The position numbers and the translations under genes were made by a program. A stretch of 64,000 nucleotides of DNA from Cyanidioschyzon merolae (taxonomy: Eukaryota), in the NCBI GenBank assembly GCA_000091205.1, contig AP006493.2; one strand, 5' to 3'. The notes under the pieces are model-generated. The model was not told the DNA's origin, made no database searches, and saw only the letters and a program-made list of their open reading frames with translations. Shown piece by piece: positions 1-55,570 of this stretch. The number at the start of each line of letters is the position of its first letter. The stretch's first letter is position 1.

Positions 1-239
1 GTTGTATTGTTCCAAGAGTGTCTGCTTTGAGCAGCAGCGATGGCAGCTATACCGTTGGTGCGGATGCAGCACGGAGACAGAACGGCGTTGCCATACCACT
101 GCGGGCGTCGGCTCGAGGCGTGGTTTAATCGACACGGGGTCGGAGTACATGACAAGTCTGGGAGCCAGGAAGCTGCACATACAGGCGTGCTATCTGCGGG
201 TGCGCGAAGCGATTTGCTGGGAGATAACTGCAGCATGGG

Positions 240-2945
240 CTGCGCCCGGACGCAGCCTAACTGCTCCGAGTCCCAGAATAAACAGCATTGCGGATGCGTT
301 GCTCAGATATCACTACAATGCCTGCCACTGGGGGAAGCATGAAGCATTAGTCTGGGAGACTCGTCCGGCACGCTGGACCTTACTCTATTACGGAAACTTT
401 TCCCCTTTTAACGTTGATCGTAGCGAAGAAAAGAAATTTTTATATCATTGCTTGGTAATGGTGGGTCTCTGCTCTTTGTTCTATGTAGCGCGCTCGATAC
501 GCGCATCTCCATATCTGGCAGGTATGGAACACGACGTGCATCTCGCTGCTAAAAGAGGAACGAGATCCTGACCGTTCGTGTGTAGCTCTAGCTTCCAAGT
601 TGTACGGGGGTTCAAGTCATAGCTGATTATATTCTTTCGATTCAATTGTGTTTCAACCCTCAAGCAAGTATGTTCAAGTGATTTTCCACGGTTTGCATCG
701 GACGCGTATGAAATGAGATCGTTTTCAAAACAAAAAAGGAAGGAAATGGGAATTGAAGCGGAGGATCCCGGAGGCGCATTGTCACCGGCTGGCGGAAAAA
801 AAACGAAAAACAGAGCCCAACGTAGAGACATAAGACAAGACGAAGAAGCAGAAGGCAGAGGCACGACGCCAAAGGCCGCAAGAAAGACGACAGTACGACG
901 AGATGGTGGTGAAAGCCGGTCTTCTTAAACATACCAAGGATCCGTACAAAAAAAGTTGCAAGAGGGCATCGGAAACCGTGTCGCAACCTACTCCACCAGT
1001 GTTTTTAAGGCTTCTCCAGGAATTATGCATTTCATGAGGGAGATGTATCGCGACGTGACGGACATCAACACAGTTGAGGTTCCCGAAGAATCGTTCGACA
1101 CGACCCTTATTCGCCACCTGACGCTTAGCATAGGGGAAACGTCGAGGAGAAATGAGCGAGTAAATGACCTCCACGAATATCACGCCGAATACCGCTTCAA
1201 CGATACTCGATGCAATGGTGACGCGGATATTTACGAATACAGTGCGATGACGTACCTCACGAGTCTGGAGAACAATATGATCATGATCTTGGAACGTTTC
1301 AAGTTATGCTCCTTCTTTGCGCTGTGTCCGGGCCATTCTCGCAAAGGGATATGGAGCATCATCAATCGCGCCACGAATGATTGTAGGAATCAACAGGAGA
1401 TCGAATTCGTTGACAAGAAGGCATCACGTAGGAGTAGGAATGAAGCTTCTGTGATCCGCGCGGCCATTCAAGAGCACCGTGCGGTCTTCGGGCTGCTCAA
1501 TCCGGAAGAAAAGTTATCAGAGATGAAAAAGAGGATGTTATCCACTCATTCTACGGTATTTCGTCTACCTGAACCGAGAACTCGAACGCAAGGCGGAGAT
1601 GGAGCTGGGTATGCGGAAAAATGCAGAGTCGTAGAAACGAAAGGCTGCGCTTCTGGGGAAGCGCTTCGATTTCGTTACGATATGCAACAGCAAGTCACAT
1701 TTTGTGGCAATCAACTCCAGCGTCCTTCATGGCATCATGAGCGAGATCTGTCCGGAGTTCAATGTCAGGAAGACAGAGATCATCGGCGTAAAACCGGGAC
1801 ACGTACAGGAAGAATATCTTCGAGTTCAAACGTCTCGAAATGAGCAAGCAAAAAGTATTTACTGGGATGATCAGAACCGATGGAGTATCCATATGTGCTC
1901 AGTATCCGCGCCTGAGGACGGATCGTCCTATTGTGTCTTTGATATCGCCCTCGGCGAAGCGTGAAGAAAACAACCACGGGGATCCTGTGACGCAGGAGGT
2001 GCAGGAGAACGACTTTGTCGTTGGCGCTGACCCCGGCAACACGAATATCGTCACAATCGCAGTACCCAAGAGTGCGGAAGATGGCATTGACGGCATCTTG
2101 CGTCAGAAAAACATGCATCTTTTAAAGTTCTCGATAGCGAGATACTATCGGGAATCGGGAATAATGAAAGCGAGGAAACAAAATAAGAAATGAAATTCAG
2201 GAATGAAGGCGCACCTGGAAGCGATCAGCAAAGTGACTTGCCGTGGAGCGAGCTTTCGATCCGTCCTGGAGTTCATGGAAGCTCGCGTTGCTCGTGACGA
2301 GTAGCTTTGAAAAGAGTATACAAAGCCCAGGTGGGCTCGTCAGTGTACGAACCTGCACTCTGGGAAACAGCGCGCATTCGCCGAATTGTTCACTGAGTTG
2401 AGCGCCCTCGAGGACCACTAGAGTCAGCGGCTCGTACTAGCATACCGTGCAGGGCGCTGGGCGTCCGAAAAGGGGACATATAAGCCCCATCGACAAGAGC
2501 GTACAGGAAGTTCGCTCGCAGTTTTTTCACGATACCGATACATGAGTTCCGAATATCGTATGTGCACCACGAGCTAATGTGCACACTTCAAAGGGTCGAG
2601 ATGGAAATCTCCCAGCGGATCCCGGAGGATATAGAACAGTATGGAGCGCTGGAGGAACAGCAAATGGAAAGAAGGGCGCAAGTTCGAGGACTCCTTGCAT
2701 TGGTGAGTACAATGAACGCGAAGAAACAGATGGAGTTCGTAAACCGGGACTTGAGCGCCGCCATCAATATCAGGAGACGTACCGTGCTGGACAAGAGACC
2801 CGCGGCGCTGACGCAAGCCAACCTTGTAGGGCAGCCCCTCAAGGTCGAATCACATAAAGACAAGTTGAAACCAGCAGTAGGTGGCCGGTCCAAAACGACT
2901 GAGAGGCGTCTGCACGTGGGCGTAGGGATATCCACGCTATCGGCG
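240..2945 (+). mobile_element. Fanzor/TnpB-like (OMEGA-family RuvC nuclease) element, copy A, degenerate; left boundary uncertain and may run off the window start
   Basis: Aligns by eye in long blocks to 51610-54542 and 32290-33761. Shares their non-coding leader, a K/R-rich NLS-like N-terminus, and RuvC-I/II/III-like motifs in TnpB order. Right boundary set by three-way alignment ending ...tatcggcg at 2945, after which all three copies diverge. Confidence 0.55.
746..2910 (+). pseudogene. Fanzor/TnpB-like RNA-guided endonuclease gene relic, broken by frameshifts and in-frame stops
   Basis: ORF fragments 713-928, 956-1843, 1704-1964, 1840-2193, 2203-2304 and 2562-2999 are co-linear with copy B. 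RuvC-I-like [16 protein letters not shown] at 2008-2055. Helix [20 protein letters not shown] with a candidate RuvC-II Glu. LEAISKVTCRGASFRSVLEFMEA resembles TnpB L-A-K-x-I-S-D-A-G-W-G-E-F-x-x-x-L-E-Y-K-A. Decayed zinc ribbon YRISYVHHELMC. RuvC-III FVNRDLSAAINIRR at 2736-2777. A 1-nt insertion relative to copy B near 1790 and stops at 929, 1632, 2191 and 2302. Confidence 0.55.
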
Positions 2946-3549
2946 TTATGTAGGTACGCATGTATGCCTGGTTTGCCGGCGGCATCGATGCTCTGGTAAT
3001 CTTCCAGGAACGCAGCTTCTAACCAAATGCCCCCTGGTGCGAACATGCCAGCGATAAGCGCGGGAGAGGGTTTACATCCTCGCGATACGCACATACATCC
3101 CATGCGTTTGGGTCTAGTCTTCGCCTCAAAAACAGATGCTTGATCGATACAATGCATCCCCGCGTATTGCGCCTCCAGCTGACACCCTCCGGGGACTGGG
3201 CGCTCGGACGATGCGTTTCTCGGGGCATCATCGCGAGAAATGCGCATCATTGCTGGACGCTGCGTCCGATCTGGTAATGCATGCGTGCCGACGCACCTGT
3301 TTACCCGTCGTCGCATGCGTGCACGCATGCGCCTCGCGGGAAAGAATGACACGCACGCAAGTGCACGCATCAACCCGAGCGTCTCGATGCGTTGTCTCTC
3401 TCTGGAATGACGCAGCGTCGTGTAGCGGCCCTGATGACATCGGCGCAGGGTACGCTGCTTGCACGCTACAGATATAGCAGACTACGCACAGAGACTGAAC
3501 AGTAGTCTTTACGAAGCAGACGAACGTACGATCCTCTGCGCCCCGCCGC

Positions 3550-6294
3550 ATGTCCCGTCTGGTCACAGGTAGTTCTCGCTCGTTGCGCACGCTTTCGAAG
3601 AGGAGCGGTACGTTCGCTTCACGCTCGACTCGGTTGACGTCAACCAACACGACCCGATCGCTTGTGCTTGCTGGAGTGCTCATCCAGGACAAGGGAAGGC
3701 GTGTCGGTGTGGCTGCATGCTTCGTCGATGCCTGTCGGGTCGAGCTGCGTCAGTTCACCGACAACTACGCATACGACCGCCTGGCTGTGGGCCTGGAGGT
3801 GCTGGACCCGTCAGAACTGGTGGTGCCTGATGGAATAGCGCTTTCCATTCTGGCGCCGATACTCCAGCGTGATCAAGGGGTCGCGACTACCAGCATATCG
3901 GGCGACGGCAGCGGTACAGTGCATGCGGACTCTCGTCGCGCTGTGCCGATCCCTCGACGATTATTCAACGAGCAAATCGGTCTGGAACTTATGGAACGAT
4001 TCGCCGTGGACGCAGCCGCGATACGTCTAAGCGCGTCACAGCCCGAGCGTGACCTCGCAACGGCAGCATGTGCCGCAGTGTTGCAGTATCTCGAGCACCG
4101 CGGAGAGTTGAGTTTTCGACCAAGGGCCGTTCAATTCGTGTTCACGAATTGTGAGGACGCGCTTTTCATGGACTCATGCACCGTGCATTGCTTGGAACTG
4201 GTGGAGCGCGGCGACTCGGAAAGCGGCACCGACGCAGACATATCTCTACAGCGTACGCTGCGTTTCACGCAGACCGCCGAGGGCGCGCGCGCCCTGCGAC
4301 GCGCGATCCTCGAACCACCCGCGAATCGGACCGTCATCGAGGAGCGCCTGGATGCCCTAGATTTCATGCTCAGCAATGATGCGATTTACTACGAGCTTAA
4401 AGAGGCGCTTCGACAGACGCCCTCGGTCGAAAGAACGATCGCGCAGATTTTCCATATCTATCCGCGAGCACGGGAATCGTTGGGCATGCAGGCGCAGTCC
4501 CATATTCGGGATGCGCGCGTTCATGGGGCGCAATCCATCGACCATGTCGTCGACTTCCGCTTTGTGCGTAGCGTCTGGCAACTGAGACGGGCACTCGACA
4601 GCCTCTTTCGCATACGCGAAGCGCTCGATGTGTTCCTGGAAGAGCGCTCGACCCAGACCGGTACAAGGACCTTACCAGTACTTCTGGAATGGTGCCGGAA
4701 CGTTGCCCGTCTCACTGCACTGACCGATTTGCACCATGAGCTGGGGCGCTGTCTCGCCTCTACGACAGAAGTAGAGCTCGAGCTCGGTTCAACCGAGCGA
4801 AATCGCTTGCATATTGCTTTTGCCCTGCGCGCTGGCGCCAATCCATTGCTCGACGCTGCGCGTCGTGCGCTGTCCGACACCGTATCGAGCGTACATCACC
4901 TCGCTGAGGCCACCAAGGGTCAGTTGCGATGCCCTCGTCTGCATGTCGCGTACAGCACGCTGCGCGGATACCACTTTGTTTTGCCTTTGCGAGACGCTGT
5001 GCAGCAATCGCTTACTCGCACGGAGATCGGCGGCGTTCTCTTACGGTATCCGGTACGTTCAGGAAAAAAACTCCTGTTCACAACCGATGCGCTGATTCGT
5101 TTGAACATGCAGTACCAGGAGACGCTGGCAGAAATCTGGCATTTGAGCAGCAAAGAACTTTCCAAGCTGGCGGAAATGGCAACGAGCACCGCTTCAGCGC
5201 ACGCGATCCACGAGTTTTGTGATTGCGTGGCTGCACTGGACGTCACCCTCGCGCTGGCGACATGTATTCGACGAGCGCGCGACCGCAGTTCGTGTCCGTG
5301 GGTGCGACCACAATTCCCCGACACCAATGTCATGGCCATGAAGGATGGACGCCATTTGCTCCTGTCCCATCTGTACGAGGCACAGCGGCGCGATCCACCA
5401 AGACCGAACGATGTCTATATAGATGACGCTCATAACGTGATGCTTCTCTTCGGTGCAAACGCGTCGGGCAAGTCCGTGTACATGAGACAGACAGCGCTCA
5501 TTGTGGTGCTCGCCCAGATGGGGTGCTTCGTACCAGCTGCTTTCGCCTCCATGCCTGTCTACAGCGTGCTTCTGGTGCGGAGTCGCTCTGATGACGCTCT
5601 GGAACATAATCTCTCCTCGTTTGCCATGGAGATGCGGGAAATCACAAGCGCGCTTCACTACATTGACGGAGAGGCGCTCTCCAGCGCATTAAATCCGTTA
5701 GACCAGGAGCGCCGCATTCACAAACTTGTCTTATTCGATGAAGTCGGACGCTCGACCGGCTCGCTTGATGGCAAATCCATCGCCTGGGCGATGCTCGAGT
5801 ACCTTTCTGATACGACCGCACATATCATCTTTGCCACACACTTCAGCGAGCTTGCGCGGACGCAAACGTACCTTCCTAACGTCCATGTGATGCACCTACA
5901 GTCACGAGTGGAGAATGGCACGCTCTATCATGATTACAAGCTTGTAGAGGGTGCGCCAGCGTCTTCTCGTTACGGGGCCGAAGTTGCTGCCCAAGCCGGA
6001 CTCCCCAGCGCTGTGGTCACACGCGCGTTGCAGTTTCGCGGAGTGTTCAGCGGAGATGCCTCCACCTCAACAACGACACCTACAGCAACAGATACTGGAA
6101 ATCAAGGATTCCTGAGTATCGACGACGAAACTTGGGCCCATTGCAGATGGTATACCAAAGCCAACACCCTACTCCAGCGACTTGTCATGCTCTCGTACGT
6201 GGCCACTTCACCTGAAGACCAGTGCGCAGGCGTAGCCGAACTGGCTTCGGTGTTCGCGGACTTGTTCGAGACGCCAACAGCGGTTACTCGCTAG
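3550..6294 (+). CDS. MutS homolog without an N-terminal mismatch-binding domain (MSH4/MSH5-type meiotic MutS); low-complexity S/R/T-rich N-terminus, so the true start may lie downstream
   Basis: Uninterrupted 914-codon frame. MutS domain V: Walker A LLFGANASGKSVYMRQTALIVVLAQMGCFVPA, SFAMEM, Walker B LVLFDEVGRSTGSLDGKSIAWAMLEYL, IIFATHFSELA. No Smr or GIY-YIG domain. Confidence 0.8.
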   Translation: MSRLVTGSSRSLRTLSKRSGTFASRSTRLTSTNTTRSLVLAGVLIQDKGRRVGVAACFVDACRVELRQFTDNYAYDRLAVGLEVLDPSELVVPDGIALSILAPILQRDQGVATTSISGDGSGTVHADSRRAVPIPRRLFNEQIGLELMERFAVDAAAIRLSASQPERDLATAACAAVLQYLEHRGELSFRPRAVQFVFTNCEDALFMDSCTVHCLELVERGDSESGTDADISLQRTLRFTQTAEGARALRRAILEPPANRTVIEERLDALDFMLSNDAIYYELKEALRQTPSVERTIAQIFHIYPRARESLGMQAQSHIRDARVHGAQSIDHVVDFRFVRSVWQLRRALDSLFRIREALDVFLEERSTQTGTRTLPVLLEWCRNVARLTALTDLHHELGRCLASTTEVELELGSTERNRLHIAFALRAGANPLLDAARRALSDTVSSVHHLAEATKGQLRCPRLHVAYSTLRGYHFVLPLRDAVQQSLTRTEIGGVLLRYPVRSGKKLLFTTDALIRLNMQYQETLAEIWHLSSKELSKLAEMATSTASAHAIHEFCDCVAALDVTLALATCIRRARDRSSCPWVRPQFPDTNVMAMKDGRHLLLSHLYEAQRRDPPRPNDVYIDDAHNVMLLFGANASGKSVYMRQTALIVVLAQMGCFVPAAFASMPVYSVLLVRSRSDDALEHNLSSFAMEMREITSALHYIDGEALSSALNPLDQERRIHKLVLFDEVGRSTGSLDGKSIAWAMLEYLSDTTAHIIFATHFSELARTQTYLPNVHVMHLQSRVENGTLYHDYKLVEGAPASSRYGAEVAAQAGLPSAVVTRALQFRGVFSGDASTSTTTPTATDTGNQGFLSIDDETWAHCRWYTKANTLLQRLVMLSYVATSPEDQCAGVAELASVFADLFETPTAVTR

Positions 6295-17760: not shown

Positions 17761-20478
17761 CGCATAGGCACCTCTGAATCGCCAACTAGATAGGATCCTT
17801 CAAGACATCATCCTTCGTTGAAGCATTCTTCGCGGCTTCTGCCTCGCACATACCTCTGTCCTGCTGTTGGACAACGTCGCCGTCCATCGCGAGAAAAAAC
17901 CCGGTCAAGGCATACGCAGCTGTGATTGGCGTTGAGCTGCTGATAGCACCAGCCTATGCTCTTTGGTTCAATTGAGTCGAAGGCGTCTCGTCGGTTGTCG
18001 AACGCAAGGTCAACGCGCACGGTCCAATAGACGAGTCGTTCGCATTCGCGTAAACGAATGGTGCGGGACGCCACCAGGGACCGTATAGCGTCGTACGCGA
18101 GGAGTTCTCGCCTAGCTTCTATCGCCCTGAAGCACCTCGGTAAGGAAACGTTCGTGAGCGTTACGGACGGAAGGCTGCACGCTGTGAATATTCCTATGGA
18201 ATTTTTGGATCGGCCCGACGTGCGACAGCACACTTGATGCAGGAAGTGAAGATGCGATGCAGTAGGGGGGTAGGACCAGGGATTGGCGCAGGTGCTTCCC
18301 AGAATAACTTGACACGTCACCACGCGACGTCGAAGATCGAAAAACCTAGAATGCATATGCGAAGTGCCATCAGACCAGGTTCAAGGATGCAAAGCGTATG
18401 CAGGTGAATCCGGAACGCTTCCCAATGCGCACTCTCTAAGCATTGTACGCGGTGGACCCTCATTATCGTATCGCGACAGAGAGGGCGACTGTCTGCAGGG
18501 ATCCCCAGCTTATCGATGGAGGCAAGCGACGGCCTGGTGATGTCTAAAGAGCTCGCGGTAGTACTGAGTTCTGGTTCGTATCGTCTGTGCTCATAGGGTT
18601 GCTCTCGACCTCGGACCGCCGCACATTGCATCCAAAGGACAGTGGAAACGTGATACCCACGTTTCGTGGATCTCGCGCAAATACGTTTTCCTGAACAAGG
18701 CTCCTCGACGCGATACAGACTTCCTCTCTCGATCCGAGCGTCGTATCCTCCTCAAATGACTATGCGATGTGGCCCATATTTCGGGAGATTAAGGCCCATT
18801 ATACCGCCGTAGGCGATTACCTACTGCACTGTGGAGCTTCCTCGATGGGGTACGGCCTGTCTCTGGGTATAACAATGCTGTGCTCGACCGAATTCGTCAA
18901 ATGCGGTAGCGAAGCGCGTTTATGGACGCTCGTATACTGAAAAGTATCGGAATGAATTGTACACGGACGATGAATACCAGAGAAATCTCAGTCTGAATAC
19001 AGTTCGTAAAACCAAGGCCTGACTAAAACAACAAGACTCAATTTTCAGCGGTAAGTGCAGGGAAAGACGTGGTGATACGCGTGGATCCCTGGTTGAAGAG
19101 CATCATGGCCGTCGTGGTACCTCTATATCAAGAGTGCGGTTCCAAAGACCCGGCAGACAAACAGATCAAGCTCCTCGACTTGTTCTGAGTTCAAACTGAT
19201 CGAGATTCGGGCATCACAGACGCCGTGGTGCATACCAACAACTAGAGTAAAGACTTGGCATTCATCTGGGCGGGGTCAGACCCGTGTCGAGCATCGGACG
19301 ATGCTTTGTGCGCTTCATTGCAAGAGTACGTGAGCGTGCATACGGTTCATGCAGACCATCCCTAGCACAAGTACACCAGACCGCCTTGAGGTCGCCAGCG
19401 GTTTCCGTTCTACGGAGGCATGAAGCGTGCTTTCGCGAACTTGTTCAATCAATTGGAAAACAAAATTACCGACGATTTGCTTCGTCTGGCGGCGGCTTCT
19501 CGCCCTTGACATGCTGCACTCCTGATCCTTCGACGAGAGCGTAGAGCGAATGCAGGACTCGATGCCCTACGTGTCCCGTCGAGGCATCACGACGACGTCA
19601 ACGCATCACGAGCACGGCTGCACGCTGAAACTGATGGGCGAGAACAGCATGAGAAAGAGACGGATACACGAGCTGGTGCACGTTGAGCAAGCCGAACGTC
19701 AGCTGGCGAGGTTATCGAATGTAAGCAGCTTGCTATGGCGTGATTCTACCAGCGACCGTGCGCGCAAGCACTTTCTGCCCCTGGACTTGAACACATCCCT
19801 CAACGTCTAGAAAAGCGTCGCGCTGCTGGAGCGTCCGGCGTTCTAGTGTCCAGCGAGCTTTTCAGACACGGAATCGTTTCGTCGTTTCTATAGACATTGT
19901 GCTGAAATGCCGGCGACTAGAAATGGAATAAACCAGTGTTCAGAAGAGAGGACACTGGCTTTCCGTATTGAGTAAGGCATTGGTGGGCCATGGTCCAGCG
20001 ATCGAGAAATGCTGAAGCGTGGTATACTTACTCCGGGAACATTTCTCCAAGGCAATTGATGAATGTTCATGATCTCCCGCGATTCGGTATTACTGAGTAG
20101 AGCATGCCCACGCGCTGGCGCTGTAGCTAGGTGCCTGTAACGAAGAGAGCGCCGTCGCTCCCGTTATCTTTGCCAGCGCTCCAGATCACCTGATACCCCT
20201 GATTTCCTGCATACCAATCTACAAAACGTCTCTTTTGGCGCAGAAACCTATTCGACTATATCGAGGTTTTGGTGTGGAAGCAAAACGTATCCGCGTCCAG
20301 AACTGACGCATGGACATCGATTGGGTTCCAAGCGTACGCGCAACACATGGACAGCGTTTCGTTGCTCAGGCACGATACGAATCCAAAACCGCGTACGCAT
20401 ACCGAGGATATCTTGGGGATGCGCGCTGAGGCAGCGGCTGCACTTAATGCACTCGGCACACATAACAGGAGGCTTCAA

Positions 20479-29904: not shown

Positions 29905-31968
29905 TCAACGATCGTTATCGTCGGCTCGAACAGGATCGATCCACCAGCGGCTCGCATTGTCTTTGCGATCCTCGATGTGAATCGCACCTAGTCGAAACAA
30001 AATATCATCGCGCAACATATCACTCAAACCGTAGAGTGCCTCGGTGGCCTTCTGCGTTGGCTGTGCTGTATCCTGCCGTAGCTGCTTTGCGAGGTTGCGA
30101 ATACGCATACGAAAGTCAACCAGTGCCGCGATAAACGCTGTCGGCACGCGTGATGCAGATGCCTGCGCGTTTGCACTTGAAACTCCCGGAATGCTCTGAA
30201 AGCCCAGGAGACGCAAGATACTCGCGAGGTACTCGCTAGCGACAAGCACTGCGTTGTGCTCTACAGCGTCCATGCGATCAAGGCGACGTCCGCTTTCGAA
30301 ACGATACAATTGGTTGGTGAATTCTACAAGAGCCCGCACAGCTCGCGGAAAGTCGAGGTCATCCGCAAAGGCTTCTGCGAGTGCCCGGTGACATCTCTGA
30401 GACCATTCCGCGAGTTGTGCTGGGACTTTGCGTCCGGTTGGATTCCTCGGAATCGCAGCTTGTGTATGACTCGAGCTAAAGACATCCGGCACTGCGTCAA
30501 CATCGGCAACATGTTCACCAGAAGCTACAGCGAACGACGGCTGCCAGTGCGTGCTCGGAATGTCTCCCTCTATGGATGCGTCCGCAGTTGCAATGGACTC
30601 TTGACCAGCGACACTGAGAGCTCTAGATGACTCTTTGCGAGACTGCGAACGCGCGTCATTGGCTATTCGAGCCAACCAGCCAGTCAGTCGATCCCAGATA
30701 CGTGCCGCCTGCAGTCGCTGCGTGTCACCGAACTCAACCGGAGTGCTGTGTCGATGCATTGCACAGAACATTCGAAATACGTCCGCTTCTCTGCGTATGC
30801 GCATCAAGTCATTCGGGCCTTGTTCGCTCCATCCCAAATAATCCCTAATGCGCCTGGAGTTGCCACGTGATTTGGCCATTTTCTCTCCTCGAATCAGGAG
30901 CGTGCCTGTGTGCATCCATTTTCGGCACCAGGGGCGTACCCGGTGATAACACTCGCTCAGATGCAATTCATTCTCATGATGAGGAAATCGCAAGTCCATA
31001 CCGCCGCTATGCAGGTCGAGATGTGTACCGAACACATGGGCACACATTGCGCTGCACTCAATGTGCCAACCTGGTCTGCCGTAACCAATGCGTTTCTGAT
31101 CATCATTGGCACCATCTGGTACGTAAAAAGGCCAACCAGGCTCCTCGTCCGTTGCTGAGACGGCCTTCCAGAGCGCAAAGTCAGCAGGATGGCGTTTGCC
31201 AGGGACGTTGTCGGCCGCTGGTGTGTTTGCGGCGGTTTCAGTGGCGGTACCGGCATGACTCGCGTCAAGCGCCCGACTGGCATCAAGAACGCCGTACCGA
31301 GACTGGACACGACTAGTATCAAAGCAAACGTCTCCTGATGTGGTTACATAGGCGTATTCCGTATCGAGTAGCCGCCTTGTAAAGGCGCAGATCACCGGTA
31401 TATGCTCGCTAACCCGCAGAATATGAAGCGGCCGCAGTACTCCAAGCAAGTCGAGATCTTCGAAGAAACGCTTTTCAAAAATAGCGGCAATTCTTGAACA
31501 CGTTTGTCCAATGGACTCGTTCGGTAGTCGTTGCTGGCGAGCCCGCTCGATGATCTTATCATCGACATCCGTCACACTCATTGCAGTTATTGGCAAACAC
31601 TGGTACCATTCCCGGATGACACGACGCACCATATCGAAGGTAACATAGGTTCGAGCGTGTCCTAAGTGAGCGTCATCGTATACAGTCGGGCCGCACTGAT
31701 ACCAGTAGAGCGGTTCACCGAGAGCTGGCAGCCACTGCAGGCGTCGCTCACCTGGCAGCGTGGATGCCGCGCTCGTGCCAAGTGGGGTGTTTGTCGGGCT
31801 GAAGCGCCGCACCAACGTCAAGTGGTACGGCTTTCGATGCCACAGGCGGGGAACTCGCACACGGGGCATTGCTCGTAAGCAGATGACGACGACGACGACG
31901 ACGCGGGAACGGCTTCCAGCGTGAAGCTCACTCCGCCTGAGCGCCGTTGCCAGCCTCGACGAATGCAA
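29905..31968 (-). CDS. Cysteinyl-tRNA synthetase (class I) with an N-terminal extension
   Basis: HIGH region WYQCGPTVYDDAHLGHARTYVTFDMVRRV. Zinc/Cys-binding GWHIECSAM. KMSKS as KMAKSRGN. N-terminal ~90 aa are R/S-rich and include VVVVVV encoded by a (GAC)n repeat at 31889-31909. Confidence 0.9.
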   Translation of the reverse strand: MHSSRLATALRRSELHAGSRSRVVVVVVICLRAMPRVRVPRLWHRKPYHLTLVRRFSPTNTPLGTSAASTLPGERRLQWLPALGEPLYWYQCGPTVYDDAHLGHARTYVTFDMVRRVIREWYQCLPITAMSVTDVDDKIIERARQQRLPNESIGQTCSRIAAIFEKRFFEDLDLLGVLRPLHILRVSEHIPVICAFTRRLLDTEYAYVTTSGDVCFDTSRVQSRYGVLDASRALDASHAGTATETAANTPAADNVPGKRHPADFALWKAVSATDEEPGWPFYVPDGANDDQKRIGYGRPGWHIECSAMCAHVFGTHLDLHSGGMDLRFPHHENELHLSECYHRVRPWCRKWMHTGTLLIRGEKMAKSRGNSRRIRDYLGWSEQGPNDLMRIRREADVFRMFCAMHRHSTPVEFGDTQRLQAARIWDRLTGWLARIANDARSQSRKESSRALSVAGQESIATADASIEGDIPSTHWQPSFAVASGEHVADVDAVPDVFSSSHTQAAIPRNPTGRKVPAQLAEWSQRCHRALAEAFADDLDFPRAVRALVEFTNQLYRFESGRRLDRMDAVEHNAVLVASEYLASILRLLGFQSIPGVSSANAQASASRVPTAFIAALVDFRMRIRNLAKQLRQDTAQPTQKATEALYGLSDMLRDDILFRLGAIHIEDRKDNASRWWIDPVRADDNDR
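31889..31909. repeat. (GAC)7 microsatellite, in-frame within the CysRS N-terminal extension (poly-Val on the minus strand)
   Basis: gacgacgacgacgacgacgac. Confidence 0.8.
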
Positions 31969-32289: not shown

Positions 32290-33761
32290 AGTCATTGTAT
32301 ATGTCATTCTCATGCGTTTTTTACTTCCATCTGCGACATGTATCGTCTTTCAACTTAGTTTCGCGTCAACCCCCGCTGCAGTATACAGCAGGAGATCGGT
32401 ATCGGGATGCAATGTATCTTAGCGGTCCAATATGCGTCGTCTATCGCATATATCCTTTACGGAACAGTACCGGAATGACTGCATTCCTTATTCAGGTCAG
32501 TCATACCTCAATATTCTTATGATTGAGGAACACCTATAGAAACAAGTACATGCTTCTCATGTCAAAACCGATATTCTCATAGCTTGCTTGCGGTCTCTGG
32601 TATATAAACGACTCGTTGATCACCGTGCGGAAAACAAAAGCGACGATCGTAGCCACTAAAGGCGTCTCTGTTTCTCAACAGTACGTTCGCGTGGTCCTGA
32701 AAACACTGGGGTACAGTTGCAAAAAAGGGTTCTAGTTCTTGCACAGCCATCCCTAACCGAAATCGGTACTACTGCAGTATTCTTGGAACGTCACGATCGT
32801 TCTGAAGAAGAGAAGATTCGGTTTATTTTTCAGTCGACGAGACCTTCTTCGAACGAGACAGTTGGAGCTTGTATGGGTATTCGCGGAGTAGGAAGCCCGT
32901 TCTACGTACAATCGAGCTCGACGAGAACGACGGCATTCTCTGTTCTAGCTGTAGTGAGCTCATTTGGCCGCCTCAGTTTCGCTAGTAGAGAAGGCTCATA
33001 CACCAGCATCAACCCCTTTGTCGCATCATTGAAGACTTTTCCCCGACGCTCGGCGACGTCCTCTCACAGGACACCGTGCATTTGAGAATTCTCGTTGCGT
33101 TCGAGCGTTCACCGATGGTATCGGGGCAGAGCTGCGTATCATGCCCCCGTACATGCCGTGCTTCATTCCTATCAAAGGAGTCTTTTCGATCGTTGCATTT
33201 CATGATAGCTGCACTCTTCGATTCGCTGAAGCGTTCAGCACACAATGCCACACTAGGGCGCATTTCGTGTTTCTTCCGCACGTTCATCTACCTCAGGGAA
33301 CGTCCTCACCTAAGGCCATAACAGAGAACGTTTATTTCCAAATAAAAAAATCCAAGGAACGAGTTAGAGTGTGCACCTCAGAAAGTCGACATGGAGAGAA
33401 GGCCGCCGAACGCTTCGGGGATAGAAAAGCACAGAGAGCTGACACAGTCGCAAATGCCCCAGAGGGCCCGAGTTCGAGGATTCCTTTCATCGGAGCGTTC
33501 CACCAGCTGCAATGAATGCATCAAGTTCGTGAACCGAGACTTGTAGCTGCTTTCAATATCAGACGATATGCGGTGCTGAAGACGAGGCCCGTAGAGCTGA
33601 CGAGATACAAATCTATGGAGCAGCTTCTCATGCTCGAAGCTAACAAGGAGAAGCCCAAACAGATAGCAAACGGCCAGTCCAAAATGACGCGGGGGTGTCT
33701 GTACGTCGGTATTCATTTACTACCCACCATCGTAGGATGATCATTCGTTTTATCGATGACG
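32290..33761 (+). mobile_element. Fanzor/TnpB-like element copy C, an internally deleted (non-autonomous-like) derivative that keeps the leader and the 3' part
   Basis: 32290-33000 aligns to the copy B leader (51610-52330). 33170-33761 aligns to copy A 2230-2945, including a RuvC-III remnant KFVNRDL / VAAFNIRR split by a frameshift at 33523-33570. About 1.4 kb of the nuclease core is missing. Ends ...tatcgatga at 33759. Confidence 0.55.
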
Positions 33762-33807
33762 TTCTTCGCCGCCAGAAAACCTCTGCCTCTGTTGCCGTCC
33801 AGTGGCG

Positions 33808-34884
33808 ATGACCAGTTCCACTGAAAAGTTACAATCAACAGAGCAACCGGGGCAAGCAAAGCTCCGCGTACAAAAGCGAGAACTGGGTCAGACTGGCTTA
33901 CGAGTTTCTGTTGTAGGCTTCGGAGCATCGCCGCTCGGTGGCGTTTTCCGTGAGGACATCGACGAAACAGACGCCTGCGCTGCCGTGTACCAGGCTCTGC
34001 ACGACTTTGGCATTAACTTTTTCGACACTTCTCCGTACTATGGAAGTACTCGGTCGGAACGTGTCCTCGGAAAAGCGCTCGCACAACTCGGTGAACGAGA
34101 CGACTACGTTCTCGCGACAAAGGTAGGCAGGTACGGCCCGAACAACTTCGACTTTTCCAAGGAACGTGTTCGGCGCAGCGTGGAGGAATCCATGGAACGC
34201 CTTGGTGTTCGGCGCTTGGACCTGGTTCAGTGTCACGATGTAGAGTTCGCACCGTCCAGACGTTTAATCGTGGAGGAAGCGCTCCCGGCCCTGTGCCAGC
34301 TGAAACAAGAGGGGGTTATCGGCGCACTCGGCGTAACGGGTTATCCTTTAGCTATCTATCGCGACATTATCGAGGCCAGTACCGTGGAGCTTGATGTCGT
34401 GCTAAGTTACTGCCATGGATGCCTCTGTGATACGTCGTTACGCGATAGCGGCGTGCTCGCGTACCTCCGAGAGCAGAACATTGGTGTCCTGAATGCATCT
34501 CCGCTTAGTATGGGGTTATTGACGCCGGACGGTCCACCTGCATGGCATCCGGCACCACCTGAACTCAAAGCGTGTTGCCGAACTGCTGCAGCGTGGTTAG
34601 CAAGTCAGCAAGTGAATGCGGGTATATCCACAGACCTGGCAGAGGTTGCGTTGCAGTTCGCGGTCCAGCGATTCGCTCAGGACGACGTGGCGAGCACCCT
34701 CGTGGGCATCGATGGCACGATAACACTGAGGAAGAACATGCAGGCCTTGGCAAAGCCTCTAGACGATATGCTCCTGAAGGGCGTCCAGGAGATCCTCAAA
34801 CCAGTTCGGAACGTTGGGTGGGAGTCTGGACGACCGCGTTCCGAGTGGCTGGAAGCTGCACCAGGGGTCCGAGAGTCTGCCTAG
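33808..34884 (+). CDS. Aldo-keto reductase closely resembling plant L-galactose dehydrogenase
   Basis: LGQTGLRVSVVGFGASPLGGVF, INFFDTSPYYGST, QCHDVEFAPS, VLSYCH, NASPLSMGLLTPDGPPAWHPAPPELKAAC, TLVGI and ILKPVRNVGWESG track the L-GalDH sequence motif by motif as I recall it. First ATG at 33808 (the track start at 33802 is GTG). Confidence 0.7.
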   Translation: MTSSTEKLQSTEQPGQAKLRVQKRELGQTGLRVSVVGFGASPLGGVFREDIDETDACAAVYQALHDFGINFFDTSPYYGSTRSERVLGKALAQLGERDDYVLATKVGRYGPNNFDFSKERVRRSVEESMERLGVRRLDLVQCHDVEFAPSRRLIVEEALPALCQLKQEGVIGALGVTGYPLAIYRDIIEASTVELDVVLSYCHGCLCDTSLRDSGVLAYLREQNIGVLNASPLSMGLLTPDGPPAWHPAPPELKACCRTAAAWLASQQVNAGISTDLAEVALQFAVQRFAQDDVASTLVGIDGTITLRKNMQALAKPLDDMLLKGVQEILKPVRNVGWESGRPRSEWLEAAPGVRESA

Positions 34885-37952: not shown

Positions 37953-38395
37953 TGTAGAATCTTGGAGCACCATGACCGACTGCTTATCGCATAAGAAACC
38001 CTTTCCGGAGTAGGTGCGCGACGCTCGAGCTGTTCTAGATTGCTGAACCGTTCTTTACTAGTGTCCTGCTTGAGGCGCGAAGCCTGTGGCGGCTCTGCTC
38101 TAGCAACTCATGTGAATCGCATGTCTGGATCATTTCAGCGCAATGCCTATACTGAGTGCTATGCAATGCGCTCGATTTTCCTCGTCTTGTTGATCGGTTG
38201 AAATTGTGCCTGGTTGCTGGGCACTCTCCGAGGTCTCACAGAGTGCATACATCTTGAGGTTCTACCAGTCTTTATCGTCCATGAGATTTCGTATTTACTC
38301 CACCGCGTGACGCAAGCACCTTGCACGATCTCCACCAAGTATCGTCGTGAGGTAGCTTGAATGTCTCATACTTGCTCTCAGAGACTAGCCGTAGC
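37953..38395 (-). repeat. Right arm of the ~445-bp inverted repeat pair (partner of 29037-29478)
   Basis: Reverse-complement identity with the left arm; see that feature. Confidence 0.85.
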
Positions 38396-40411
38396 TCACA
38401 GTGACGGTCGCGCACGACACAAGTGCCTGCGGTATTATAATGGGCCCTATTCGGACATATAGGGACAACGTTCTATTGACGCTTGAGAGGGGTGGAGCGT
38501 TCGGATTCGGGCTGCGCTTTTGCTTGTCTCTGGCATGTATACTTTAGGAACACATAGAAGCGCAAGACGCAAGGCAGACAGGGAGACATTCACTGTGTTT
38601 CGGGCATGCGATGGATACGTTGTCCGTCGGCTCGTGTCCGAGAGCAACTCGATATGTCTGGATGATATAAAGCGAGTCTCGCTCTCATTTGCGGATATCG
38701 TCCGAACTCGTTACCAAATCAATCTCTTCCGCCGACACCTCGTTATTTGTCCCGATCGACAGCCCATGAATGCCTTCCATCCGTCCCAAATTTTCTGCGC
38801 CCGTCCGGATAGGCCACAACGGATGCAACGCCCATAGAATGCGCTCGACGTTGACCCACACATGGTTGAGGTTTCTGAGGTTCATCTGATAGCTTCTGTC
38901 ACCTGTGCAATAGATTTTTGGGGTCGCAAATGTGGTACGGCGACCTGCCGAGGTATGTTGGGAATCTTGCAGGTAACACGCTGGCCCTATAATCAGACGG
39001 CCTCGCGTCTGCTATCCCGCGCATCAGTTGTGTTGTTGTACTAGGCTTGGATCCAAAAATCTCTGAGGAATATGCTCAGCCGGCTGCCCTGCATCTGGTA
39101 CCCGTGTGAACACTTGCTTACGAGATTTTCCAAGACGAGAAGAGCTAGGGGAGCCTTCCTGGCATCATGTGGTTTACGATCCCCAACGACGTCCTGCGTT
39201 TTGCTCTTTGAAACATTCACCCCGTTGACCTGTTTCATTAATGAAGGTCTTCACTGCGGTTCAGACCGATCTTTCCGCTCCGTGTGTCTTCGCTCCCTGT
39301 TCTTCCTAGTTCGCTTTTCGGGGGAATTTTTCTCTTCTTCGACCGATGGTTTCCGTTTCTTCTCCTTTAGCTCGCGGGGTGGCATGAGTGGGTTCGCTTA
39401 ACACCATACCCATTTTGTTTCCCCGACGGATTCATACGCATTGCGTGGAAAGCACAACGGAAGCTCACATTGTCTGTATACGTACACATCAACTATTCGT
39501 TGCGTCCCCTTTGATTATCTTCTCTGTCGCGAGCACGCTCCGGCACCGGGACGCGCTTTTCCGCTCTCTCCCGCACATGCGCAGAGCATCAGCAGAGTAG
39601 TTCAGGGTTGTCGACGACAGAGTACGATTTCCGGAACACCAGTGTCACGCATGTGAACAACTCGTCTAATGATACTTGAGCGAAAATATCGAGATTCACA
39701 GTGCTGAGGACGCCTTCGACGAGGCTGAACTAGGGAGAACAGACCGGCAAGAAGAACAGCTTTCCGCCAGTCTCATCTGCGTCATACTCGACCATTTTCT
39801 ACACAAAAAAGTCAGTGCCGGCTACAATCAGGACTCAAACGTATGGGAAGGGGCTGCCACGAAGTGCTTCCAGGTAGGCTGAGGTGTCAAGCGATCCTAT
39901 TCGTCCAGCACTTCGTGGGCGAGCACACGATCGCATCACAGCTCTGACTCGTGTCGTTGTCCTTCTCGATAGTCTCTTCTTCACCAACAGCGGGTTGTCT
40001 CTCTACGAATACGCATATGCGTCTCTGCCGTGTTTCCCAAACCAAGTTGCACGGGAGCACAACGTCCCTGCTTGGGCTTTCTGTAACAGCTACGCTACAA
40101 GAATCAATTCGGTGGCACTGCATCCCAGGCTTCAACCCGAAATCTTCAAAGAATTGAAGAGTCTTCTACCTGCGACCATGTGTTTCCAGATAATCCTACA
40201 GTTTTCGTTTCCACCTTCGCTGGCACCAGAGCCCGAGTTCTCCGCATGGCACCCACTGAAGACCCTATGAGCATCGAAACCGTTCTTCGCTTGAGAGTGA
40301 GCGCGCGCGAGTACGCCATACAGCGTCCACAGTCTCGTACTGTCTTTTGCAACTGGCTTCCGCTGCGACCTCTGTTGGCTAGGAACGAGCGTCACGAGTT
40401 TTATGTACTGA

Positions 40412-45046: not shown

Positions 45047-48000
45047 TGGTGCAGCCGGTCCTGGTTCGCGCCAAAGCGTAGCTAGATCTTTTGCATTCAC
45101 AGGACTGGTATGCTTCAGCTCATCGCGAGGTTTGCGCAGTGCTCAAGGACCACAGAGGACCTTGGTGTGCGTTAGTGATGCTTTGCGTGCATCTCGTCTT
45201 TTGGACTGGAGCCTTTTTCTGGGACGGACAGCCTCGCTGCATCAATGTTGCTGTTGAGCGGAGCAATCCGTGGCACACTCTGGTCTTGTATGATCGACGC
45301 TTGTAGGCAGGTCTCCTCTCGTGGTGCCAGCACGATCGCCGAGGGCACTTCAGCAACAAGGTCGTCTATTTCGTGGCGGTATTCTCGAGCACTCGACAGG
45401 ACCCGATAACTTGTTCCTGATACCGACACCCTGCTTTCCTTAAGCACATGCTCGTTTTTGAGAATGCGACATCTGCGTCTCTGGTGCTTTTTCGTGCAAT
45501 GTAGAATCTATGCATCTGTCGATAATTTTGCTCTGGAAATGCGCGCTCCGGCGTGGTGTTGATGCTGGTTAACAGGATCCGGTTTTTTATGTTGCAAAAT
45601 AAATGAGTCTGACCAGAACTCCACGAAGGTGCAATTGCTATTGCTAATCAGGCTAGACAACAGTGTCGCTCGTCAGGCACGCCCACCTTACCCAAACCCA
45701 GACCTGGATTTTCGTCGGGATTAGAGACGAGAACGATACCGTAATTCTTCGGATGCATGGTTACGTCCAGTGCGTGACGCTGTAATAGCAGTTTTATCTG
45801 GGTCCGCCTAGTCTCCTGCAGTCAACATCCGCTCACAGGGACCTGGTGTTCACCATCGCTCGCTCATTGCCCGAGACGCTCCGAGTGTATTGGCGAGCAG
45901 GTTTCCCCAGCATACATGTGCCAACCGCAATGCTCGTGAATCCACCGCCACAAGTAGATCAAGTGCAGCGACCTGGAGATCATCCTGCTCGATGAGCGAT
46001 GCTCCATTTTCAAGCTGATGGATCGCGATGGCTTGCTTTCTCGTTTCTTCAAAAATGTTAGGGATCGCTCGCATCTCGCTTTTGTTCAAACGAATGCCGT
46101 ATGCTCTGCATTATCCCGGATGAGCTAAGACGGGTTCCAAGCAGTCGGGTAGGCGCGTGTGCGTCTCCTGGGGTCCTTGGAAGATGCAAAGGCGCAAAAT
46201 CGCTCCTGCAGCGAAGCACGGTTGGTGACATTCATGTCCTTGCGCACGAAAGAGACGCACAAACCTGCAACGCCCTGGATACAACCCTGCTGCACAATGC
46301 TGAAACGTCCTGCTCTTGAACTCGAGCCGATTTCGTTGTGGCAATTGGCAACCCGGGTCCGCCTGAACGCAAGCAGCATTGTTGTTTCTCGACACTGCGG
46401 GATCAAGCTTCGAGTCGTGCTTGATCGACCATTCGGAAGAGCACAATGAGTGCGAACCAATCTGGCTGCTTGTTATCGAATCTATCGATCTGGGCATTCT
46501 ATCCAGGTCGTGCTTCGATTCGCAACCTGAGCGATTTGCTGAAAGAAAAGCGTCAGTTTCAGCGCACCGAACGAGAAGGGCAACGCATCCCAGATGCTTT
46601 ATACACACGGAATAATATCGAATAACGGAACACCGTTGTCGATCAGGTATTGCCCAGGAAACCCGTTCCAGGAGTGTTGATAAATAGACAACATTCGAGC
46701 CTTTCTGAATTTCCGGACAGTGCCACATCAGCTCCTGCGCTCATTCATGAAGCCAATACCCTCTATCCTGGCCACGAACGTTTCTCTCGCAAAGCTTCAG
46801 ATTTTCAGGGCAATGCCTGTGCTGCGTACGAAACCATTGCATGGAAAGTTCGCTCGACACAAAACTTCTGGACGCTCCGGACGCAAGAGATACTTCCAGA
46901 TATTGATTGAGGCATTCAAGTACAGGTGCAGAAAGTGCTTGTGTGCTTGGTTACTAGATGAATCACTACGTAGCAAGCCTCTCACTATCGTTTTCACCGC
47001 CATTTGACGTTAGCTCACATTACTGGACACCATACCTCGCATCCATCGCTATCTCACGCTTCCCTGTTCTACCAGTTTCAACATGCACCCGTGCTCTTGC
47101 TGCGTGTATGTCGTCTTGAAGCCATTGACGGCACTCGAGCGATGCCGATTCCCGCATTCGTTGTATGCTCTCGTCGATAGCGGAGGAGGTTTTGCTAGCA
47201 CGTTACAAAACGTCCAGTTCCATAGATTACTTTAAAAAAGACATGATTCATACCTCATTTCCATTTCAAAATCATTACAGGAAACGGAGAATAATCGGTT
47301 CTCGCCTCTGTACAACTGTAACTAGTGACGACACAGACACCGTCGTACGCTCTCCTGCCCGAGATCACCTGCATGAGCTATTTGAACACTCAAGTACATC
47401 CGGGATGAAGTACACAACGCACTTATCTCTGCTTGATAAGCTGCCCAGAGTTTCTAAATCGGCCTTGAAGTCGTCATACCGCCAGGCGGTATGCCTCCTG
47501 GCAACCAGAATGACCGACTCCAGATGATACAACGCTTTGGAACAAGAGCGCTGCTTCATCTGCTGTACATTCAGGTTGATGGATCGGTCCTCATGCGTTA
47601 TCGCGTTGGCGACGGTCGTGGTATTCATAGTCCCGGGATCCACGCTCATAACAAGTCGTTCTCTTGATCTGGATTCAACCCTTTTGAAAATGAGTCTTCG
47701 TGCTCAATTCAGACCTAGATTTTACAATGAATATGTAGAACGATATTCCATCCGCCCCTATGGTCCATGTAAACAAGAAAACTAAAACGAAATTCACCCA
47801 CGCGCTTCGCGAACTTGTGCCAATGCTTCGTGCTCGCTCGTCGAAACGAACACCCTCTTCTTTCCCTTTGCTCGGCCGGATGGTATGGATTTGGTCGTCG
47901 TACCTTTTTTTCCGTATGTTTGCCTTGTGATTCAGATGCACGAGACCAACGGTGGCAATGAACCTTGCCTTTTCTACGTATGTTTGTACCTGCAACGATT

Positions 48001-54542: not shown

Positions 54543-54665
54543 ACCGGGCAGCTTGTGATAGCTTACGTCTCAGAGAGGCTTGTGAAGGTTGTAATACTGT
54601 TTTAAACTTTTTACTGGAAAGGTTTTCGGGGATCACTTGCGCAGTGCTTCGTTTTACGTGGAGCG

Positions 54666-55570
54666 ATGAGTGCTTCTAGTGATCTCAGCCCCGAGCAGAT
54701 CGCAGAGTAAGTTGAATGGAAACCGCTGCCATAGGTACCGCTCCAGGCCGCACTACACTCTCGTCGCTTGGACTTGAGACTAGATTTACATCGAGGTTGT
54801 TCTTGTCTCCATGCACTTGGCTTCAGGGGCCTTTATCTTGATCGCAGCAAATGAACGACGTGTGGGCCCCAGCCCAGAAGACACCGGGGCCTGCGACTCG
54901 CGGCCGCTTTTACGAGGTAGCTTGGATTCGAGCTGCGTGCTCTCCGCTACGCTCCACTGCACAACTTGGACCCAGAACTGGGTAGAAAGCTAGCGCCCCG
55001 TTGTTGGTGTTCGCTTGGTTGCGCAGCAGGCACCTGAGGCAAGCGGCAGCAGTTCGTTCGGAGCACGACCTGTGTTTGGGATGCAAGCGCGACGGCTAGA
55101 AACAGAGCAATGACTAACCTTCCCATCGATCACGAAACGGCTGTAGGTTTGAGGAGGCATTCAAACTTTTTGACAAGGATGGTGACGGCAAAATCACCAC
55201 GAAGGAGTTAGGAACGATCATGCGCTCGTTAGGCCAGAACCCTACGGAAGCCCACTTACGCGAGATGATCGCCGAGGTTGATCAAGACGGATCAGGCACT
55301 ATCGATTTTGATGAATTCCTTGCGCTGATGGCAAGCAAGATGAAAGACATCGATACCGAGCAGGAAGTGCGGGAGGCATTTGCGGTTTTCGATAAGAACA
55401 ATGACGGCAAAATCAGCGCTGATGAGTTACGGGCGGTCATGCTGAAGCTGGGTGAGCGACTCACAGACGAAGAGATCGATGAAATGATTCGCGAAGCGGA
55501 TGCCGATGGAGACGGCTATATTGACTACCAGGAATTTTCGAACTTATTGCAATGGGATCAGCACACCTAA
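54666..55570 (+). CDS. Calmodulin, two exons (54666-54706 and 55147-55570) separated by a 440-nt intron
   Basis: Exon 1 [14 protein letters not shown] then donor GTAAGT at 54707. Branch-like tgACTAACc at about 55112-55119. Acceptor tag at 55144-55146. Exon 2 (E)[37 protein letters not shown]... with four EF hands through [18 protein letters not shown]. An in-frame stop at 55115-55117 excludes an unspliced reading. Confidence 0.8.

Follow-up and report, generated by a model that had tools for sequence, protein, structure and literature searches.

We considered a window of 64,000 nucleotides from Cyanidioschyzon merolae (assembly GCA_000091205.1, contig AP006493.2; the window is this whole stretch, and positions are counted from its first letter), in which a first-pass annotation had recognised, at 240-2945, a degenerate TnpB/Fanzor-like relic of an RNA-guided nuclease gene, here called copy A. 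That recognition is borne out, as copy A is 80% identical to the Fanzor1 element CMe-1A and the profile of its family matches Fanzor1 alone. The element lies on the + strand and is made up of a 5' module at 1-495 (consensus 141-635, within the part of CMe-1A reported to be 95% identical to the repeat TE-N2_CMe, PMC3627910), a non-coding 5' leader at 496-745 (consensus 636-905 by blastn, the consensus open reading frame (ORF) beginning at 906), a degenerate ORF for the Fanzor1 protein CMe-1 at 746 to about 2930 (codon projection, tblastn and six-frame hmmsearch) and a 3' tail of an older-subfamily type at 2931-2990 (blastn against metagenome copies). The start proposed at 240 does not hold, since homology to the consensus is already present at window base 1 and the ORF begins at 746; the 3' end proposed near 2945 was roughly right, with tail homology extending into 2946-2990. 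This homology reaches about 2946 with three metagenome loci (L019, L021 and L045) and about 2990 with a fourth (L061), and by blastn alignment the end of the element is placed between these two positions.

Within the ORF, a K/R-rich N-terminal stretch is present at 785-900, as had been claimed; it reads AAGKKRKT...KTKKQKREARRQRLQERRQY in the consensus, with GKKRKT...KTKKQKREARRQR visible at the N-terminus, and it may act as a nuclear localisation signal (NLS), as in other Fanzors, a role taken from the Fanzor literature (PMC10530073). Further downstream come a WED-like segment, KRKAALLGKRFDFVTICNSKSHFVAINSSVLHGIM, at 1639-1740, aligned to QRFSAIPLRRSLIQSHVRIDTIILYQ of SpuFz1, the Fanzor1 of Spizellomyces punctatus (profile against the structure 8GKH, and projection), and the RuvC-I motif at 2023-2055, with its Asp codon at 2029-2031 aligned to SpuFz1 D383. 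The canonical RuvC-II strand, QRLVLAYRAG, lies at 2432-2461 (aligned to SpuFz1 ...VVMGD...) and is followed by a shifted RuvC-II motif, IPIHEFRIS (consensus IPVDEFRTS), at 2532-2558, the Glu codon of which (2544-2546) aligns with SpuFz1 E541. A remnant of the NUC/zinc-ribbon region without CxxC pairs occupies 2559-2735 and leads to the RuvC-III motif, FVNRDLSAAINIRR, at 2736-2777, whose Asp codon (2748-2750) aligns with SpuFz1 D606. The distance from RuvC-I to RuvC-III, estimated earlier at about 240 amino acids, is 242 amino acids from Asp to Asp in the consensus. The peptide motifs quoted in the first-pass annotation were all found on the + strand where it had placed them, including YYRES at about 2140-2154 and LEAISKVTCRGASFRSVLEFMEA within 2203-2304, spread over several frames.

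All three catalytic codons are kept in copy A, in a broken frame. Codon projection onto the consensus confirmed the frameshifts and stops that had been noticed, giving six frameshifting indels (near 797, 950, 1531, 1790, 2478 and 2923) and eight in-frame stops, and the projected protein is identical to the CMe-1 consensus protein at 501 of 734 residues (68%). The consensus protein matched this ORF by tblastn as four frame-shifted pieces, and the pieces were recovered by a six-frame hmmsearch with the family profile at E-values down to 3.6e-53. Because of these six frameshifts and eight stops, copy A is dead and holds no intact nuclease ORF. Both copy A and a second relic of the window, copy B, described below, are pseudogenes; copy A is neutral genomic debris, unable to make protein.

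Identity of copy A

According to Bao & Jurka 2013 (Mobile DNA 4:12, PMC3627910), C. merolae has one Fanzor1 family, CMe-1A, with about 150 copies that are each about 80% identical to a consensus of roughly 3 kb, and the family falls in Fanzor1 in their phylogeny. The same authors described CMe-1A as devoid of terminal inverted repeats (TIRs), with no target-site duplication that could be established, reported that its 5' 635 bp shares 95% identity with a distinct repeat, TE-N2_CMe, and that some copies still encode intact proteins, and included a C4 zinc finger in the motif by which they defined Fanzor.

Using the CMe-1A consensus (3169 bp) and the CMe-1 protein (734 amino acids) from the supplement of that paper, we obtained by blastn a single alignment of 2953 columns between consensus 141-3088 and window 1-2917, with 80.2% identity, a match far above chance. 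Since this value fits the published identity of about 80% and the published length of about 3 kb, copy A is a member of CMe-1A. Its 5' module aligns with the consensus from position 141, and, because this homology already reaches window base 1, the element must start before the window, consensus 1-140 lying outside it; the relation of this module to TE-N2_CMe and the absence of TIRs are taken from PMC3627910. We put at about 95% the probability that positions 1 to about 2990 of the window are a single old, dead copy of CMe-1A, a TIR-less, multi-copy element of about 3.2 kb whose lone gene is a Fanzor1.

The reading of motifs from the letters alone had thus recognised a real Fanzor relic. Fanzors in Rhodophyta are listed by later surveys. 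The family was named in 2013 by Bao & Jurka as the Fanzor1 of C. merolae, and copy A is an already known and typical dead member of it that itself holds nothing novel; as a discovery it carries little weight.

Sequence searches and membership of Fanzor1

Pfam proved blind to the CMe-1 clade, so that a family profile was needed. In a large protein collection we found 32 homologues, each derived from a metagenome or a raw-read assembly and some of them intact proteins of 626-676 amino acids. A profile of ten sequences, frame-corrected copy A among them, had SpuFz1 (8GKH) as its best match at E = 5.4e-5, in a colinear alignment running from the WED-like 'KRF..VP....SH..ID..VL.G' through to the C-terminus. 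In an exhaustive hidden Markov model (HMM) search, E <= 1e-3 was then reached by representatives of 3,334 clusters (at 50% identity), from which a family profile of 93 sequences was built. Searched against the whole PDB (177,635 sequences), this profile gave three matches only, all of them Fanzor1: PpFz1 of Parasitella parasitica (9CF0, 6.6e-25), SpuFz1 (1.8e-18) and GtFz1 of Guillardia theta (9CER, 9.6e-12). No Fanzor2 (9B0L), TnpB (8H1J) or Cas12 chain appeared in this search at E <= 1.

The relationship was also visible between single sequences, as corrected copy A matched the Volvox Fanzor1 VCa-2 by BLASTP at E = 4e-5 (for a database of 1e9 residues) and the CMe-1 consensus matched VCa-2 at E = 1e-14 and VCa-1 at E = 1e-7. 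The attributes of a Fanzor1 mobile element were found, namely a eukaryotic nuclear setting, six relics in the window and metagenome copies with common ends. Those of a TnpB of the IS200/IS605 type were lacking, the Pfam matches being sub-threshold, the PDB matches containing no TnpB chain and the ORFs of the window including none that resembles TnpA. As judged from these sequence comparisons, the CMe-1 family belongs to Fanzor1, one of the defining features tested, the C4 zinc finger, being absent.

Active site and zinc ribbon

The active site of SpuFz1 consists of D383, E541 and D606, together with N385 (Saito et al. 2023, PMC10432273), the three acidic residues corresponding to 777, 935 and 1000 in the numbering of the maltose-binding-protein fusion chain of 8GKH. 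In the profile alignment they fall, in this order, on the family D of DPG (GADPG), the E of VDEFRTS and the D of NRD, in columns that carry the catalytic residue in 93/93, 93/93 and 92/93 members. All 93 members have Gly at the canonical RuvC-II position (VVAYGAG), mutated on to Arg in copy A, and the alternative Glu in VDEFRTS lies 33 residues further downstream. A rearranged RuvC-II has been described in which the canonical Glu is replaced by Gly or Pro and an alternative Glu stands about 35-50 residues downstream, beside [TS][TS] (PMC10530073, PMC11832414), and by this alignment the CMe-1 family has the same 'rearranged' RuvC site of Fanzor and TnpB2.

Two motif assignments of the first-pass annotation have to be changed. 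YYRES, which had been offered as RuvC-II, was rejected: its 'ES' is conserved, at only about 42 residues past RuvC-I, and the SpuFz1 catalytic Glu aligns elsewhere, the corresponding residue of copy A being the Glu of HEFRIS. Likewise, the helix beginning 'LEAISKV...' is not the equivalent of the TnpB 'LAKSISDAGWGEF', as it precedes the canonical RuvC-II strand.

From TnpB through to SpuFz1, the NUC domain has retained a CCCC zinc finger. Copy A had been credited with a decayed zinc ribbon, and what is seen is not decay, because neither the consensus nor any of the 93 members has the ribbon. In these members, the shifted Glu is separated from RuvC-III by a median of 48 amino acids, with a median of one Cys among them, and the zinc ligands of SpuFz1 (C942, C945, C980 and C985 in chain numbering) fall on non-Cys columns, save for one vestigial Cys kept in 67/93. 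On this alignment, the loss of the zinc finger is clade-wide and not damage to copy A, with the D-E-D triad kept. We found no description of this loss for the CMe-1 clade in the literature examined. A clade that lacks a feature usually deemed defining for TnpB and Fanzor means that intact relatives in hot-spring red algae could be of interest to searches for compact or thermostable genome editors.

A bolder proposal is that the CMe-1 lineage represents a large Fanzor1 clade not singled out in the literature, which has lost the CCCC finger, kept the D-E-D triad and has near-intact members in hot springs; taken as a whole we hold this to be rather unlikely. If it were true and the proteins were active, the acidic hot-spring Cyanidiales would hold RNA-guided nucleases without a zinc finger that are adapted to heat and acid.

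Relatives in hot-spring metagenomes

Among metagenome contigs we counted 359 relatives confirmed by tblastn and fetched 80 loci, in many of which there are CMe-1A copies with 77-89% identity to the consensus. Hot-spring metagenomes hold hundreds of copies of the family, with a sharp common 3' end. Long ORFs with all three motifs were present, for example in both L005 and L077 (722 amino acids from an internal Met) and in L006-L008 (699 amino acids), and the protein P0027 (676 amino acids) appears intact from start to end. The suspicion that the family may have intact members elsewhere is supported by near-intact relatives in hot-spring metagenomes, in agreement with the intact copies of Bao & Jurka.

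The 3' ends of the metagenome copies fall into three classes, at consensus positions of about 3082-3092, 3145 and 3169, and the oldest of these includes copies A and B, with a tail unlike that of the published consensus. In younger copies (L010, L039, L043, L068, L074 and others) the 3' end is sharp at ...GAAAGGCG and is followed by TTTGTT; about 6 bp may be missing from this end of the published consensus (compare consensus 3140-3169). Full-length younger copies have a T-rich 5' flank, TTTTTC|CGATGAC..., which could reflect a preference for a target or a target-adjacent motif (TAM). The last 25 nt or so of the younger copies can form a hairpin of 9-11 bp that exists in two versions with different pairing registers, ACGTTTTTC-TTTT-GAAAGRCGT and GCGTCGTTCGA-CTT-TCGAACGGCGT, and further upstream a GCCGCC/GGCGGC stem has variants that look compensatory in an alignment read by eye. 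RNAalifold, run on 34 3' ends, retained just an invariant stem of 3 bp. The hairpin had also suggested Helitron-like ends, which were rejected as the ends are not 5'-TC...CTRR-3'. These end structures are what an omega-RNA scaffold or a transposon-end signal might show, but a strong claim of this kind is not borne out by the consensus folding, the folding energies or the Rfam search. Were the proposal of a distinct, active CMe-1 lineage correct, one would expect the omega-RNA and the target-adjacent motif to be recognisable by the sharp 3' end (...GAAAGGCGTTTGTT), the hairpin at its terminus and the T-rich sequence (TTTTTC) flanking the 5' end.

Other variation was seen among the hot-spring copies. 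Many of them (L005, L011, L012, L017, L070, L072, L078 and others) carry one to four extra tandem copies of an 80-bp segment (75 bp in some), consensus 2117-2196, which lies just upstream of RuvC-I and adds in-frame 'ATQEV.DND..VD' peptides (as in P0001, 752 amino acids). Many copies (L005, L015, L016, L018, L027, L028, L082 and others) begin at consensus positions of about 648-687, without the TE-N2_CMe module, often with a piece of consensus 84-255 directly before them in inverted orientation, and in L051, L054, L078 and L080 a TE-N2_CMe-like unit directly follows the 3' end of CMe-1A. What was published as CMe-1A may combine two elements that are often found side by side.

By analogy with the characterised Fanzors SpuFz1, GtFz1 and PpFz1, an intact CMe-1 protein would bind an omega-RNA transcribed from the 3' end of the element that carries its gene, the guide portion, derived from the flank, would locate matching DNA beside a short transposon-adjacent motif, and the single RuvC site would cut the DNA matched by the guide. 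Such RNA-guided cutting would presumably aid the persistence or spread of the element. For the CMe-1 family, the guide-RNA step in particular is something we infer from those Fanzors. What is mildly new in this study is confined to two points, that the zinc finger has been lost throughout the clade and how the younger copies are built at their ends.

Evidence against and alternative explanations

Several results weigh against a Fanzor1 identity of copy A and its family. The two CxxC motifs of the zinc ribbon occur in 0 of 93 family members, and CxxC pairs are absent from copy A and the consensus as well. Pfam gave nothing significant for eight raw ORF fragments, the frame-corrected protein of copy A or the CMe-1 consensus, for which the best match was to PF07282 at E = 0.52 (a score of 11 bits, where 26.3 is the cut-off, spanning only NRDFNAAINI); six homologues reached PF07282 at E = 0.019 at best, again sub-threshold, and the precomputed PF26935 assignment of homologues read 'DUF8286 (weak)' and nothing more. 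Searching the PDB with the consensus protein by phmmer produced only a chance match to angiogenin (E = 2.6). An AlphaFold2 model of the intact relative P0027, from an alignment of 17 sequences, had a mean predicted local distance difference test (pLDDT) score of 50, falling below 50 in the RuvC half, and provides no independent evidence for the fold; Foldseek, given this poor model, ranked the SpuFz entries 9CEY and 8GKH as the top two (E = 7e-3 and 2e-2, template modelling (TM) score about 0.3), which lends weak support. The 3' regions of the consensus, copy A and copy B folded no better than shuffled sequences (z = -1.2, +0.44 and +0.1, respectively), and Rfam returned no match for the putative omega-RNA of the family. 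The first-pass annotation had proposed a Pfam search with the OrfB and zinc-ribbon families as a check on the corrected protein; that search found no significant match, and its use as grounds for refutation would wrongly reject a true Fanzor.

The missing Pfam match, the absent zinc ribbon and the poor structure model would all suit a likeness to TnpB and Fanzor that is superficial, copy A then being derived from a decayed host gene family or from an unrelated transposon protein with DPG and RD..NAA..NI-like motifs. This is effectively refuted by the search of the PDB with the 93-sequence profile, which among all those chains matched Fanzor1 only, colinearly and with E-values down to 6.6e-25; moreover, the three SpuFz1 catalytic residues sit on family columns that are invariant or nearly so, BLASTP to Volvox Fanzor1 is significant and the family has been published as Fanzor1, so that the probability left to a chance resemblance is negligible. 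It is hardly credible either that the gene is a Fanzor2 or a prokaryotic-type TnpB, borne by IS607 or IS605 and brought in by recent horizontal transfer or contamination. The reported lack of TIRs and the subterminal or terminal hairpin do recall IS200/IS605, but 9B0L, 8H1J and the Cas12 chains stayed out of a match list (E <= 1) that holds only Fanzor1, the protein of 734 amino acids has the long helical N-terminal half typical of Fanzor1, a TnpA-like ORF is absent, copy A lies between nuclear genes of C. merolae and is old, being about 20% diverged, and the phylogeny of Bao & Jurka puts the family in Fanzor1.

A different kind of alternative concerns what copy A does and not what it derives from. 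ORF-less Spu-1 elements that consist of ends only exist for SpuFz1 (PMC10432273), and copy A could by analogy be a 'ghost' element, whose 3' end is transcribed into an omega-RNA used in trans by an intact Fanzor1 from elsewhere. The sharp 3' end of the younger CMe-1A copies and their terminal hairpin, kept in two sequence versions, would agree with such a function. The tail of copy A itself, however, has diverged from the younger consensus tail, as befits an old subfamily, and folds no better than its shuffles, and the element as a whole is about 20% diverged, as neutral decay predicts; we regard a ghost function as very improbable. A dead CMe-1A copy with a Fanzor1 gene is the reading that we retain.

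Other relics and host genes of the window

A six-frame search with the family HMM found six Fanzor1 relics in the window, instead of the three copies counted at first. The gene had been said to recur twice with the same non-coding flanks: the recurrence holds for the ORF of copy B and for a fragment at 33358-33710, while the flanks of copies A and B are unrelated and the third copy amounts to only about 350 bp. Copy B, which comprises the ORF part only, lies at 52327-54495 (+) and corresponds to consensus 906-3081, to which it is 79.9% identical; by codon projection it has nine frameshifts, six stops and 66% amino-acid identity to CMe-1. When the window was compared with itself, 743-2923 matched 52324-54495 at 73% identity, and the 3' end of copy A matched a stretch at 33359-33709. 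Copies A and B become similar only a few bases from the ATG and cease to be so about ten codons short of the stop codon. In copy B, the catalytic Asp of RuvC-I is changed to Gly (GAGPGNT, window 53613-53627). The fragment at 33358-33710 (+), a 3' piece with about 69% identity to consensus 2739-3092 (aligned to 33361-33710), spans the RuvC-III region.

The three remaining relics are older, with 25-34% amino-acid identity to CMe-1. A strongly diverged one at 18577-19837 (+) covers profile positions 147-583 (best piece E = 6.7e-12), its part at 19066-19837 being recovered by tblastn with 29-34% amino-acid identity. A short one at 38323-38685 (-) covers profile positions 175-268 (E = 1.6e-4), and one that represents the RuvC half at 46842-47666 (-) covers profile positions 332-602 (pieces at E = 8e-11, 4.9e-9 and 2.4e-11; tblastn part 46845-47402). 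Copy B and the four fragments are relics of the same or older bursts.

Copy A sits amid nuclear genes of C. merolae. Among these is the ORF of MSH4 (914 amino acids) at 3550-6294 (+), an exact match to BAM80563.1 of C. merolae 10D, and copy B is followed by a calmodulin ORF at 55220-55570 (+), an exact match to BAM80576.1/XP_005536612.1 of the same strain. Both matches identify C. merolae 10D as the source of the window. ORFs resembling cysteinyl-tRNA synthetase and aldo-keto reductase were assigned by eye at 29905-31968 (-) and 33802-34884 (+), respectively. The host genes between the relics are intact and intron-less, and the GC content falls from about 0.55-0.58 in these genes to about 0.49-0.51 in the relics. 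Four hot-spring contigs (Ga0078972, Ga0123519, ERZ27247235 and ERZ27249350; loci L001-L004 compared with window 52300-55600) contain the same copy B relic, near-identical, beside the same calmodulin gene. As these contigs carry the same copy B next to calmodulin, its insertion is common to natural Cyanidioschyzon populations.

Comparison with known systems

With the published CMe-1A, copy A shares the order of a 5' module, presumably TE-N2_CMe-like, a leader and a single ORF of 734 codons, at the published identity of about 80%. It differs in that its 5' end is truncated by the start of the window, and copy B has nothing upstream of the ATG; both copies belong to an older subfamily, the last 60-80 bp of which are unlike the published consensus tail.

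SpuFz1 (8GKH; PMC10432273) is colinear with the CMe-1 family through WED and RuvC, its D383, E541 and D606 correspond to the family D, E and D, and it shares the Gly in place of the canonical RuvC-II Glu and a helical N-terminal half. By contrast, it has the CCCC zinc finger in its NUC domain, no more than one Cys of which survives in the CMe-1 clade, and SpuFz1 elements have inverted repeats of 30 nt, whereas CMe-1A is reported to have none. The similarity is low, being found at E = 1.8e-18 with the profile and with no match between single sequences, and the activity and omega-RNA demonstrated for SpuFz1 have putative counterparts in CMe-1. PpFz1 and GtFz1, the best and third-best PDB matches to the family profile, share ...TDGV..., DPGR and IDEFRTS...NRD with the CMe-1 family; they are larger than CMe-1 and have zinc-finger cysteines (CPKC...C...C in PpFz1).

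The closest published relatives among those compared are VCa-1 and VCa-2 of Volvox carteri (Bao & Jurka 2013), which have VVGxDPGxTNI, QYYxESG, RLRLYG, VAYG and VDEFR in common with CMe-1; these are green-algal proteins, with about 25-30% identity to it. The bacterial TnpB of IS200/IS605 (for example ISDra2; PF07282, Cas12f1-like TNB / OrfB_Zn_ribbon) represents the ancestral family, with a single RuvC nuclease and a guide RNA from the transposon 3' end, and shares the RuvC-III motif 'RD.NAA.NI', to which the faint PF07282 match at E = 0.52 corresponds. CMe-1 differs from it in showing no significant direct match, in the C-terminal shift of the catalytic Glu and in lacking both the zinc ribbon and TnpA, and also in its eukaryotic nuclear host, a protein about twice as long and an NLS-like N-terminus.

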